Assembly: GCA_964419615.1 (NCBI GenBank)
Contig: CAYQPU010000017.1
Coordinates: 1-33,398, forward strand
DNA length: 33,398 nucleotides
Direction of reading: 5' to 3'
Source: an uncultured Methanosarcinales archaeon
GTDB lineage: Archaea > Nanobdellota > Nanobdellia > Woesearchaeales > JAGVZT01
Within the stretch, counting starts at the first letter, position 1. Every line of letters begins with the position of its first letter. Below, one piece after another: positions 3,682 through 33,219 of this stretch. The translations under genes and the position numbers were made by a program. The notes beneath the pieces are model-generated. The model was given only the letters and a program-made list of their open reading frames with translations. It ran no database searches and was not told the DNA's origin.

Positions 3682-5577
3682 TTAAAACCTCAAACTTGAT
3701 TTTTTTGTAAAATCCCTTTGGAAAAATATTTTGTGCCACATTTGAAAACACAACAGTGCCCAGAGTTGTCTTGAGTAATACAGTTTGCTGTGTTCAAAGT
3801 CATGTAGAATTTTCTTAATGTGTTTGGGCTTGAAAACTTTGGTTGTTTTAATCTCTTTTTCTGAAAGTAACTGTTTTGCAGTTTCTCCAAATTCACCTTG
3901 AAGCCAAGAATCAATTGGAACAAAGAACCTATCTTTTTTTCTGGAAGTGATTTGTTTAGGAACTAATCTTGGCAAGGATTTTCTTAGAATGTATTTGTCG
4001 ATTCCTTTCCAAAGCTTTAGCTTTGAATCAATTTGCATTGAATATTCCCACAGATTGTGATCAAGGAAAGGAACTCTAGCTTCTGTTGACCATGCCATTG
4101 TACTCTTATCTGTTTTCATAAGAATGTCTTCTGTAAGCATCATTTCCAGATCAACTCTTAATAGTTGACTTAAGTAGTCATTAGATGTGTCAAAATGGTT
4201 CTTAATTATTTTCATATGATTGTCATAATATTTGTTAAGAAGATTGAATTTTTCTTTTTCATTAAATATTGAGACAATGCTAAGGTATGATTCTGATTTA
4301 TCATTTGTTGTAATAAAATCTGAAAATCTGTCAATACCCTTGTCTCCAAGAGCTGAAGCATATTTAAATCCTGAATTTAATATTGGCTTTGGTACTTTCC
4401 TAATAAGGGGCGGGATAATTGCCCTGGCTAAACAGGGAAATTTCCTAGCAATTTTATAATGAAGAAGTAACATTCTAAACTGTTCGTACCCTGCAAATTG
4501 TTCATCGCTGCCATCCCCTGTCAAAACAACAGTTACTTTTTTCTTAGATTCTTGTGCTAGAAGATATGTTGGAATACATGTAGGATCACATAAGGGTTCA
4601 TCTGTGCTCCACACAATATTGGGAAGTAGTTTTGCAGATTCATCCCCAATTACTAACTCATGATGATCTGTTTCATAGTGATGAGCTAAGTATCTAGCCC
4701 CTGATAGTTTTTTTTCGCTTTCTTCTTCAAACAAAACAGAAAATGTTTTTACAGGCTGATCTGAGAGCTGACTCATTATTGAGACTATTGATCCTGAATC
4801 AACTCCCCCACTGATATAGGCACCTAATGGAACATCACTCATTAACCTCTTTTTTATTGATGATTTTAGTCTTGTAATGATTTCTTGTTGAATTTGGTTT
4901 TGATCAGTATGAGTATTTTTTATTTTAAAATCCCAATATTTTGAGATTCGAATTTTGTTTTTTGAAAAAATCAAAGTGTGTGCTGGTTTTAATTTATGGA
5001 TGTTTTTAAACATTGTTTCAGATGAACTGTTACATCTAAATGTTAGATAATAAGCAAGAGCATCATTGTTCACAGTTTTTTTGAATCCAGGTAACAAAAG
5101 TATGTTTTTTGCTTCTGAAGCAAATATCATATTTTGACCATCAAAATGATAGTATAGTGGTTTGATTCCCAATCTATCTCTTGCTAAGAATAGTTGATTG
5201 TTAGTTGTATCAAACAGTGCTATTGCAAACATGCCATTAAGATGTTTTACACAATCTTGTCCATGTTCTTCATACAAGTGAACAATAACTTCTGCATCAC
5301 AATTTGTATAGAATTTATGGCCTTGTTTTTCTAATTTAGATTTCAGTTCCAAATAATTATAAATTTCTCCATTAAAGACCAAAAACAGTGTTTGTTCTTC
5401 GTTGTGTATTGGATAAAGACCTTTTTTAAGATCAATAATACTAAGCCGATTCATACCTAGTGTAAATCCTTTTGATACAAATAGCGCTCTATCATCTGGA
5501 CCTCTATGATTAGTTAGATCCAGCATTTTTTTTGCTAGTGCTCTATCCTCAAAATTAAACCCAATTATCCCACACAT
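3682..5577 (-). CDS. asnB: Asparagine synthase (glutamine-hydrolysing) family amidotransferase; probably amidates a glycan
   Basis: MCGI Ntn-hydrolase N-terminus requires the start at 5577, not 5586. Motifs HRGPDD, NGEIYNY, RDRLGIKPLYY, SGGVDS, LTGDGSDEQFAGY, EARVPFLD. Confidence 0.93.
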   Translation of the reverse strand: MCGIIGFNFEDRALAKKMLDLTNHRGPDDRALFVSKGFTLGMNRLSIIDLKKGLYPIHNEEQTLFLVFNGEIYNYLELKSKLEKQGHKFYTNCDAEVIVHLYEEHGQDCVKHLNGMFAIALFDTTNNQLFLARDRLGIKPLYYHFDGQNMIFASEAKNILLLPGFKKTVNNDALAYYLTFRCNSSSETMFKNIHKLKPAHTLIFSKNKIRISKYWDFKIKNTHTDQNQIQQEIITRLKSSIKKRLMSDVPLGAYISGGVDSGSIVSIMSQLSDQPVKTFSVLFEEESEKKLSGARYLAHHYETDHHELVIGDESAKLLPNIVWSTDEPLCDPTCIPTYLLAQESKKKVTVVLTGDGSDEQFAGYEQFRMLLLHYKIARKFPCLARAIIPPLIRKVPKPILNSGFKYASALGDKGIDRFSDFITTNDKSESYLSIVSIFNEKEKFNLLNKYYDNHMKIIKNHFDTSNDYLSQLLRVDLEMMLTEDILMKTDKSTMAWSTEARVPFLDHNLWEYSMQIDSKLKLWKGIDKYILRKSLPRLVPKQITSRKKDRFFVPIDSWLQGEFGETAKQLLSEKEIKTTKVFKPKHIKKILHDFEHSKLYYSRQLWALLCFQMWHKIFFQRDFTKKSSLRF

Positions 5578-31858: not shown

Positions 31859-31878
31859 CATAAGTAAAACCTCACACA

Positions 31879-31892
31879 GAAACCTTTTTATA
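31879..31892 (+). promoter_or_regulatory. BRE-TATA promoter of rpl35ae
   Basis: GAAACC-TTTTTATA, 22 nt before ATG 31915. Confidence 0.6.
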
Positions 31893-31914
31893 CTATTCAA
31901 AGTTACTTTTTCTC

Positions 31915-32172
31915 ATGGAAGCTGTAGTTGTTAATTTCAGGCGGGGAAGACACAGACAGAAAACAAACCAATTGGTGCTTCAGATTAAAGGATCTGATGA
32001 TATTAAGAAAGCTGAAAAGTTTGTTGGTAAAAAAGTTGTTTTCACATCTCCTGCTGGAAAACAGATAAATGGAGAGATTAGTGCTGCACATGGTAATAGT
32101 GGAGCTGTACGAGCTAGGTTTGAAAGAGGGCTTCCTGGCCAACTTCTGGGTAGAACTGTTAAAGTTGAGTGA
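31915..32172 (+). CDS. rpl35ae: 50S ribosomal protein L35Ae (eL33)
   Basis: VNFRRGRHRQ.TNQ, GKKVVF, GEISAAHGNSGAVRARFERGLPGQ. Confidence 0.95.
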   Translation: MEAVVVNFRRGRHRQKTNQLVLQIKGSDDIKKAEKFVGKKVVFTSPAGKQINGEISAAHGNSGAVRARFERGLPGQLLGRTVKVE

Positions 32173-32180
32173 TTTCTTTT
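32173..32180 (+). terminator. Oligo-T tract, candidate archaeal terminator of rpl35ae
   Basis: TTTCTTTT immediately after the TGA stop. Confidence 0.4.
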
Positions 32181-32193
32181 AATCAATATTAAA

Positions 32194-32350
32194 AAAGCTG
32201 TCTGCACCAGGCCGTTTCGTTCGCCAGTTTGCTAAACTCTATTCAATCATTAATCCAAGATAACAACAGTGCAGGCAAACTGTTCCTTTCTGAATCTTAT
32301 GATGAACACTGTCTCTCTCACATAAATTTGGCCAAGGTGCTGATAACTTT
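32194..32350. ncRNA. Candidate structured non-coding RNA of unknown family (minus strand slightly favoured)
   Basis: About 41% GC by count, in an intergenic gap with no credible ORF. Closing stem 32194-32213/32330-32350, stem 32225-32232/32275-32282, hairpin 32297-32325, loop-loop pairing 32266-32271/32307-32312. Confidence 0.55.
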
Positions 32351-32372
32351 GAATATGAATGATCATTTTTTT

Positions 32373-32387
32373 CAAAAGGTTTAAAAG
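32373..32387 (+). promoter_or_regulatory. BRE-TATA promoter of the MBL hydrolase; the TATA is near-symmetric and might also fire on the minus strand
   Basis: CAAAAGG-TTTAAAAG, 22 nt before ATG 32410. Confidence 0.55.
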
Positions 32388-32409
32388 ACCATACTCCTAT
32401 GTATTAATT

Positions 32410-33219
32410 ATGAAAGATCTTATTACTTTTCTTGGTACTGGACAAGGTCCAATGGTTATTGGTAAGCATGTTAGAGCTTCAGGAGGGATTGTTATTAATG
32501 CATATGATCATCAAATTCATATTGATCCTGGCCCAAGTTCTCTTGCTATGGCCAAAGAATTCTATCTTAATCCAAGAGCTACAAGTGTTGTTTTAGTATC
32601 CCATAATCATCTTAACCATTGCAATGATGTTAATGCTGTGATTGATGCCATGACTATTGGAGGTTTAGACAAAAGCGGTGTTTTGATTTGTAATAATTCA
32701 CTGATTAATGGAGATGAAGAAAACACACCTTATCTAACCAAGTTTCATAAAAGATGTTTGGAAAGATATATTGTGCTTAAGCCAAACCAAAAAGCTGCTG
32801 TAGATAATATTGAAATTCATACAACTTATACAAAACATTCAGTTGAATGTATGGGTTTTAAGTTAATTACTCCTGAATTTGCCATCTCATACTTATCAGA
32901 TACAGGTTATAGTCAGGATATTGGAAAGGAGCATCTAGGTTCGGATATTCTGATATTAAATGTGGTTAATCCCACTGGTACAGAATCAAGGTTTAATCTT
33001 AATTCTGAAGATGCAATAAGGATAATTTCAGAAGTTCAACCAAAATTATCTGTGATAACTCATTTTTCTGCAAAAATGCTAAATACAGATCCACTTATGG
33101 AAGCAAGAAATATCAATAAAGCAACAAAGAGACAAGTTATGGCTGCCAAGGATGGACTAACTATTAATCCCAAAACTTACTCGTCCAAAAGAAGACAGCA
33201 AAAGTTAGGCTATTATTAA
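32410..33219 (+). CDS. Metallo-beta-lactamase-fold hydrolase (PhnP/RNase Z-like)
   Basis: FLGTG, IDPGP, SHNHLNH (HxHxDH variant), SDTGY, THF. ATG 32410 is 22 nt from the TTTAAAAG box; the track start 32359 is unlikely. Confidence 0.85.
   Translation: MKDLITFLGTGQGPMVIGKHVRASGGIVINAYDHQIHIDPGPSSLAMAKEFYLNPRATSVVLVSHNHLNHCNDVNAVIDAMTIGGLDKSGVLICNNSLINGDEENTPYLTKFHKRCLERYIVLKPNQKAAVDNIEIHTTYTKHSVECMGFKLITPEFAISYLSDTGYSQDIGKEHLGSDILILNVVNPTGTESRFNLNSEDAIRIISEVQPKLSVITHFSAKMLNTDPLMEARNINKATKRQVMAAKDGLTINPKTYSSKRRQQKLGYY

Follow-up and report, generated by a model that had tools for sequence, protein, structure and literature searches.

A folded intergenic element in a Woesearchaeota genome is probably an old copy of a miniature inverted-repeat transposable element

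A structured element of 157 nt that lies between two putative protein-coding genes of a Woesearchaeota genome is probably an old, immobilised and end-decayed copy of a miniature inverted-repeat transposable element (MITE). The genome (1.48 Mb, 33.5% GC, 64 contigs; here the source genome, G000) contains the element in its contig C17, and this whole stretch of 33,398 nt, as analysed, is referred to as the window. The orientation of the element is named after the plus strand of the window, and the source genome is compared below with a congener, 'Candidatus Woesearchaeota archaeon SuakinDeep_MAG79_5' (G001), and with two order-level relatives that each belong to a different other family (G150 and G122). 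The terminal inverted repeats (TIRs), the 9-bp duplications, the pairs of filled and empty sites and the dispersed copies identify the family as a MITE; the window copy and most copies of the source genome have no recognisable ends, so that their assignment to the MITE is based on the homology of their core. The first-pass annotation had interpreted the element as a stand-alone non-coding RNA, either a ribozyme, a riboswitch-like RNA or a highly reduced housekeeping RNA. Its non-coding nature and a fold kept by compensatory changes stand, and the unique ribozyme, riboswitch or housekeeping RNA does not, the element being one of 25 dispersed copies of a family with TIRs, 9-bp duplications and filled and empty sites.

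A first DNA search of the source genome with the element rendered ten partial matches, and iterated nhmmer searches settled at 25 full-length copies, each about 150 nt long and together distributed over 19 contigs. A covariance model built from these copies (R1) recovered exactly the same 25, with scores of 76-147 bits. All of them are intergenic, and their orientation with respect to the neighbouring genes is mixed. Their alignment shows the conserved blocks GGCC, GUUC, CAGUUUGYUA, RCAAACUGUUCC, GUCUCNCUCAC and GGCC, together with a hypervariable stretch of about 40 nt and a moderately conserved junction segment. About 25-29 copies are found in the congener, which is the only one of 40 relatives to carry the family; in a sample of 151 genomes of the order it was detected in four, spread over three families, with eight copies in G150 and one in G122. 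The distribution of the family within the order is thus patchy. An exact-pattern scan of about 185,000 species genomes gave, beyond the congener, a few chance matches that were rejected by the model, no family member was found in the viral contigs scanned, and two scans of JGI metagenomes produced chance matches only, none of them confirmed by the model.

The evidence for mobility comes from the congener and from G150, where exact 9-bp target-site duplications border copies that end in inverted repeats (GGnnnnGTCAACTTAA...). The inverted-end pattern of the active-looking copies is GGnnnnGTCAA[C/G]TTAA..., and GGNNNNGTCAASTTAA is an inverted-end sequence of the family. In the young copies of the congener the inverted ends, GGCAAAGTCAA[C/G]TTAATG, lie about 5 nt outside the closing helix of the fold described below; a second subfamily of this genome has the ends GATGAAGTCAAGTTTGATG, and in G150 a related end, ..GTCAACTTAAG, itself makes up the closing stem. 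Perfect 9-bp direct repeats abut the ends of seven copies of the congener (TATTTTACA, TCTCAATAA, CTTTGTAGG, CTATAACTT, CATTCTAAA, AAAGTTCTC and CTATTTCGC), and 9-bp duplications were found at two copies of G150 (CCGATTCGA and CAAGCCCAA/CAAACCCAA). About 15 copies of the congener are near-identical and share even the otherwise variable tip of arm 1, which indicates a recent burst. Many insertions of the congener separate genes that are direct neighbours, with no copy between them, in the source genome. At locus L044, filled in the congener, the alignments of the left and right flanks end at the two copies of the duplication and overlap on a single 9-mer of the source genome (C24:3197-3205); L048, L050 and L065 are likewise filled in the congener and empty in the source genome.

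The window site shows the reverse situation. A contig of the congener (G001:C47) matches window positions 31874-32192 and 32368-33219, with 32 nt between the two matches versus 175 in the window. The congener thus keeps the two flanking genes, putatively rpl35ae and an MBL-fold gene, next to each other without the element, and the other 24 copies of the source genome have unrelated neighbours; the link to the MBL nuclease that had been suggested is not upheld. The short spacer of the congener (L130:2290-2460, G001:C47 ~130160-130193) contains a hairpin, AGCAAT-TAAA-ATTGCT, followed by a T-run, and looks terminator-like.

Nested, truncated and chimeric copies also exist. One copy of the congener (L122:2690-3008, on the minus strand of G001:C50) has an extra segment of about 165 nt in the tip of arm 1, and a related segment occurs in a second copy (L042:1826-2006); it looks like a nested element or cargo. 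At L069, L070 and L071, also in the congener, the 5' two-thirds of a young MITE are joined to the same unrelated 3' sequence (..TTACCCTATTGTACCAATAGGTACAT..), a sign that a chimeric derivative may have arisen and then been copied in turn.

In the source genome, outer inverted repeats or target duplications above the background given by a mismatched-pair control were not found at the copies. The window copy has only about 5 bp of extra complementarity left, and end remnants are seen only at copy C9 and perhaps at C19a. That duplications go undetected here agrees with what is described for insertions of great age (PMC10969869). The source genome and the congener have seven occupied spacers in common, in two cases with opposite orientations; the copies that share a spacer belong to different subfamilies, several of the congener's partners being of the young subfamily. 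Shared spacers with opposite orientations or different subfamilies need hot spots, inversion or replacement as an explanation. The pair L036/C12b, with the same site and the same orientation, aligns through the element and looks orthologous.

With respect to the fold, the raised GC content that had been noticed (about 41%) was borne out, with 0.41 over 32200-32349 versus 0.335 genome-wide, and so was the lack of a credible reading frame, the ORFs over the window copy being of 41-51 aa only. As a single sequence the window copy folds moderately better than its shuffles (z -1.41 for the plus strand, z -2.65 for the minus strand), so that the evidence beyond chance for the fold comes from the family alignment. 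The helices AAAG/CTTT (32194-97/32347-50), GCACC/GGTGC (32204-08/32336-40) and GGCC/GGCC (32210-13/32330-33) of the closing stem are present as described in the first-pass annotation, as is every other pairing that it lists, among them arm 1, CAGTTTGC/GCAAACTG (32225-32/32275-82), which is paired family-wide (Table 1). The family alignment shows compensatory changes in both: the closing helix is 89.9% paired in the alignment of the 25 copies, with both sides changed in 14 of 17 pairs, and arm 1 shows double changes at three pairs of the same alignment, with covariation at columns 33:90 and 39:84 (UA 16, CG 8) and, at column 38:85, a change from G-C to U-A in G150. Among shuffles and slid registers of the 25-copy alignment, none came near the support for these two helices. 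In an alignment of 57 rows from the source genome and the congener, 84% of the cells are paired and 27 of 34 pairs have changed on both sides, a result equalled by none of 500 shuffles.

A third, long-range helix, P2/P3, had been missed. It covaries at columns 26:127 (GC 17, AU 4), 27:126 (UA 12, CG 7, and also GC in the congener), 30:123 and 31:122 (AU 7, GC 4, CG 3), and the window copy's own version of it pairs poorly. On the plus strand it contains invariant or near-invariant U.C/C.U juxtapositions, which correspond to two tandem G.A/A.G juxtapositions on the minus strand; one of these mismatch sites is a Watson-Crick UUC/GAA in the distant copies of G150, confirming that both strands of P2/P3 face each other. 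The tip of arm 1 varies freely between copies, often with a small hairpin of its own, and tolerates a nested insert of about 165 nt in a copy of the congener. Since several tips have their own hairpins, the most fitting description of arm 1 is a long hairpin whose end varies freely. No covariation-supported helix was found in the junction segment (32283..32311) of the 25-copy alignment. As modelled from these alignments, the whole element is a three-way junction composed of the closing stem, P2/P3 with its conserved non-Watson-Crick positions, and arm 1.

Two further features that had been described for the window copy do not extend to the family. The loop-loop complementarity ACAGTG/CACTGT (32266-71/32307-12) is present in the window copy, where a repeat finder also recovers it, and is 43% paired on the alignment; as a pseudoknot it is absent at that place in all eight other copies considered, L017 having a different 6-nt loop match. 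Being private to the window copy, it is best regarded as a chance feature of that copy. The proposed arm 2 is 60% paired, shows no double changes of weight and competes with the better-supported P2/P3.

Table 1. Coordinates of the element, its predicted fold and its surroundings in the window
Feature	Position	Strand	Evidence or remark
Putative rpl35ae ORF (first-pass name)	31915..32172	+	ORF list; matched in the congener up to window position 32192
Insertion/deletion stretch, absent from the orthologous spacer of the congener	32193..32367	.	Pairwise alignment
Repeat core, one of 25 copies in the source genome	32194..32350	+	Iterated nhmmer; covariance model R1, 131.4 bits, E 8e-35, full length 1-157
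Closing helix, 5' strand (13 bp + 1-nt bulge + GGCC)	32196..32213	+	Pairs with 32330-32348
P2/P3, 5' strand, consensus GUUC-GNNNGN	32215..32224	+	Pairs with 32312-32321; covariation
Arm 1, 5' strand, CAGUUUGCU	32225..32233	+	96.9% paired
Arm 1, hypervariable tip	32234..32273	+	Alignments; per-copy inverted repeats
Arm 1, 3' strand, GGCAAACUG	32274..32282	+	Covariation alignment
Junction segment (UUCC-UUWYUG..UCUUAYGAUGAUU..)	32283..32311	+	Sequence moderately conserved
P2/P3, 3' strand, consensus GUCUCNCUCAC	32312..32321	+	Covariation
Closing helix, 3' strand (GGCC + 2-nt bulge + 13 bp)	32330..32348	+	Covariation
T7 tract after the element	32366..32372	+	Sequence; the congener has a T-tract at the same place behind a small hairpin
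TATA box TTTAAAAG of the downstream putative MBL-fold gene	32380..32387	+	23-30 nt upstream of ATG 32410; both conserved in the congener
Putative MBL-fold ORF (first-pass name)	32410..33219	+	In frame with the listed ORF 32359-33219

The signals that could assign the fold to one strand are mixed. In the closing helix, read on the plus strand, about 17 G-U versus about 11 A-C cells were counted, which does not discriminate between the strands; 13 of the 25 copies have a U.G, read on the plus strand, as the final pair of arm 1; and the RNAalifold energies of the two strands are similar (-32.3 versus -29.4 kcal/mol).

A comparison with known RNA classes confirmed the earlier failure to match the element to any of them. 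The covariance models of Rfam 15 gave no match at gathering thresholds over the whole window, the region 32100-32450 rendered, with E values up to 10, only chance-level matches to snoRNAs and miRNAs (13-20 bits versus thresholds of 45-65), and ARAGORN found no tRNA in the window. An archaeal box C/D sRNA (UGAUGA at 32299-304, CUGA at 32341-44, spacing 36 nt) was considered and rejected: such RNAs have conserved C (RUGAUGA) and D (CUGA) boxes and 12-nt guides, and here the D box is not conserved, CUGA being private to the window copy and replaced by GCTAAC in the other copies, with UGAUGA loosely kept. In a K-turn, to which L7Ae binds, tandem sheared G.A pairs stand beside a 3-nt bulge; the minus-strand G.A/A.G juxtapositions of P2/P3 are flanked by Watson-Crick pairs on both sides, not by a 3-nt bulge. 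The source genome has its SRP RNA (Archaea_SRP, 133.9 bits, C3:32984-33257) and its RNase P RNA (RNaseP_arch, 101.5 bits, C3:47511-47823) elsewhere, both above the Rfam thresholds, and the element is therefore not a reduced form of either housekeeping RNA.

In the window, the stop codon of the putative rpl35ae gene lies 22 nt before the element, and the T7 tract behind the element is likely the archaeal oligo-T terminator of the rpl35ae transcript. The true start of the MBL-fold gene is likely the in-frame ATG at 32410 and not the mechanical ORF start at 32359, to judge from conservation in the congener and from the position of the TATA box. With this start, the mRNA of the MBL-fold gene would probably be leaderless or nearly so. 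The near-symmetric TATA had been noted beyond the right end of the element; since it is conserved together with ATG 32410 in the congener, where the element is lacking, it is the promoter of the putative MBL-fold gene and not that of a minus-strand RNA.

A similar disposition is found at many other copies of the source genome. For 13 of the 25, one end is no more than 48 nt away from a stop codon; at least 14 are separated by 25-40 nt from the TATA box that serves the following transcription unit; and eight are located between divergent genes without a gene end nearby. The young copies of the congener are also found directly upstream of TATA-like sequences. This placement next to TATA boxes could represent a target preference, and it could also be the case that it is the sole tolerated space in very short spacers. 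Copy C3b (G000:C3:32777-32924, L045) lies 60 nt upstream of the SRP RNA gene, in the same direction, so that a non-coding RNA gene shares the order copy, promoter, gene that is seen with protein genes. Copy C1a (G000:C1:6398-6547) precedes the 16S rRNA gene (L047:2059-3156; SSU_rRNA_archaea, 877.8 bits) by about 405 nt and is followed, after about 40 nt, by a TATA-like box; it may sit at the promoter of the rRNA operon. About 55 nt beyond copy C11 (G000:C11 ~5010-5075, L051), the sequence GCCCCTCTTAGCTCAACGG resembles by eye the 5' half of a tRNA; ARAGORN and Rfam report none at this place, and the resemblance may reflect a tRNA that is split or contains an intron, or may be meaningless.

An autonomous partner was searched for with the transposase profiles PF03400, PF12762 and PF01609, with the end pattern of the family in the loci that they matched, and through additional end matches in the congener and G150. 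No transposase gene between matching MITE ends was found in the genomes searched. An IS1-family transposase was detected only in the congener, at a locus without matching ends, and gave no match in the source genome, G150 or G122; IS4/5-like loci were without MITE ends, IS1595 was absent, and the additional end matches in the congener and G150 were merely further copies of the MITE. The PF03400 (IS1-family DDE transposase) match of the congener, L127:1190-1915 (G001:C10 ~45770-46500), is single-copy and absent from the source genome; by eye, the locus shows a short ORF upstream in which Cys residues occur in pairs, a possible frameshift site in the form of an A-run, and a right end, GGCACTGTTACAAA, reading outward, which we take to resemble an end of the IS26/IS6 type. 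IS1-family elements produce target duplications of 8-9 bp and have ends of the form GGnnnTG...CAACTTA. The ends GGCAA[A/T]GTCAACTTAA and the 9-bp duplications of the MITE resemble these, a likeness that we regard as a lead only. A missing autonomous partner is common for MITEs, and membership of the family in this class is compatible with it.

We propose that a DNA transposon without coding capacity, about 150-190 bp in length, spreads through certain Woesearchaeales genomes. Its TIRs and 9-bp duplications would imply integration through a staggered cut by a transposase acting in trans, presumably of the DDE type. The element would fold back into the three-way junction, whose long closing stem either consists of the terminal repeats or is adjacent to them. 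As the fold has been kept by compensatory changes across four genomes, it is of importance to the element, which may require it in cis, in the form of folded single-stranded DNA or of a transcript, in order to be mobilised or tolerated. Insertions would settle where a short spacer separates a stop codon from the promoter that follows. The window copy would lie in the tail of the rpl35ae transcript ahead of the T7 tract, and passive co-transcription as a 3'-UTR hairpin seems its most likely fate. The combination of decayed ends with a core that is still about 90% paired is unlike simple neutral decay and hints at selection on the core.

It is possible, though doubtful, that MITE copies have been exapted and are now kept by the host as a cis-acting RNA module, serving as a 3'-UTR or inter-gene stabiliser, a terminator helper or an insulator. 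Such an exaptation is compatible with a MITE origin, as a later stage of it, and would explain why the core has remained conserved in the source genome when the outer ends are gone. It is in line with the frequent position of the copies between a stop codon and the next TATA box, including those at the SRP RNA gene and in the rRNA operon region, with the small hairpin and T-tract that the congener has at the place of the window copy, and with the L036/C12b pair. The mixed orientation relative to the flanking genes and the eight copies between divergent genes argue against it; many sites are empty in the sister species, so that no site depends on the element, and short spacers alone could account for the placement. 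A related suggestion, which we make tentatively and hold to be improbable to a similar degree, is that the three-way-junction core of about 150 nt is a functional RNA module for which the transposon is the vehicle and which the host has retained after decay of the ends; such a core, an RNA folded between genes and bearing conserved tandem G.A motifs, might exert its effect at the ends of transcripts or beside promoters. That the copies are mobile genes for trans-acting small RNAs seems unlikely. The core of about 150 nt, possibly on the minus strand, would then be the RNA, the tip would give each paralogue its specificity and the transposon ends would be the vehicle. A conserved scaffold with a hypervariable tip of about 40 nt is what such genes could look like, tandem sheared G.A/A.G pairs, which the P2/P3 juxtapositions would form on the minus strand, are a typical RNA motif, this strand folds better than its shuffles (z -2.65), and many copies have a TATA box some 25-40 nt away from their right end. 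These TATA boxes, however, fit the start of the next gene, and in the congener the box is conserved without the element; the G-U and A-C counts of the closing helix favour neither strand, the terminal U.G of arm 1 on the plus strand in 13 of 25 copies favours the strand opposite to the minus strand, the mismatches of P2 are plain Watson-Crick pairs in G150, and the young copies of the congener have the same tip, which there is no per-copy guide.

Very unlikely, in our opinion, is that the palindrome is maintained neutrally, by arm-to-arm correction of a DNA hairpin during replication or repair and in the absence of functional selection. In the closing helix, which either borders on the terminal inverted repeat or coincides with it, the G-U and A-C cells reveal no bias towards one strand, as would be expected for a process at the DNA level, but the invariant or near-invariant mismatches of P2/P3 persist uncorrected, P3 and arm 1 covary despite arms that are 50-100 nt apart with other helices between them, and conserved unpaired blocks such as UUCC argue for selection. 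Hardly any credence is left for a unique stand-alone ribozyme, riboswitch-like or reduced housekeeping RNA tied to the MBL nuclease: the absence of an Rfam match and a stable fold with a 6-bp loop-loop complement in the window copy speak for it, and they are set against 25 copies with unrelated neighbours, a spacer of the congener without the element, SRP and RNase P RNAs elsewhere in the genome, and a pseudoknot and an arm 2 that are not conserved.

The result removes a false lead towards a new ribozyme, riboswitch or minimal housekeeping RNA, and adds a Woesearchaeota MITE family documented by its ends, its 9-bp duplications and its filled and empty sites. A Woesearchaeon is among the archaea with the highest MITE density (PMC11602168), and in the literature searched no individual MITE family has been described from the Woesearchaeota. 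If the core fold reflects selection at the level of the host, elements of this kind would supply very compact archaeal genomes with new cis-acting RNA structure, and the interpretation of the core as a retained RNA module, if true, would make it an instance, from the archaea, of a regulatory RNA module that is mobile and selected for its structure. Moreover, model R1 can be used to mask repeats when new RNA genes are sought in DPANN genomes.

Among the known systems, the ERIC/IRU, BOX, RUP and REP elements are also dispersed intergenic repeats that fold as RNA, are often placed in the tails of genes and vary in presence from one relative to another; they differ in being bacterial and in having other sequences and mobilising enzymes. 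REP elements depend on a Y1 transposase and make no target duplication, in contrast to the TIRs and 9-bp duplications found here, and the target duplication of Correia elements is TA rather than 9 bp. The IS1 family is similar in the length of the duplication and in the type of end, whereas the IS1-like locus of the congener has no matching ends. Like the Correia/NEMIS elements of Neisseria, the family is a folded MITE that is mostly found just upstream of genes, in either orientation, and whose inverted ends would form a hairpin in transcripts (PMC10969869); unlike it, Correia has outward promoters of its own, an IHF site and RNase III cleavage, while the TATA boxes described here are those of host genes. 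Prokaryotic MITEs in general carry TIRs and direct repeats, the latter fading as the copies age, occupy AT-rich intergenic sites and give transcripts with stable stem-loops, and QMITE2 of Coxiella burnetii has direct repeats of 7-9 bp, TIRs of 23-29 bp and a core of 113-145 bp (PMC10969869). The family shares with them its size, its non-coding nature, dispersed intergenic copies, TIRs, 9-bp duplications, nesting, strong folding of the transcript or strand, and older copies without TIRs or direct repeats. It differs from QMITE2, compared here through its published description, in lacking sequence similarity to it, in having a DPANN archaeal host and no parent IS found, and in the covarying three-way junction that the Woesearchaeota family maintains across genera of different families.
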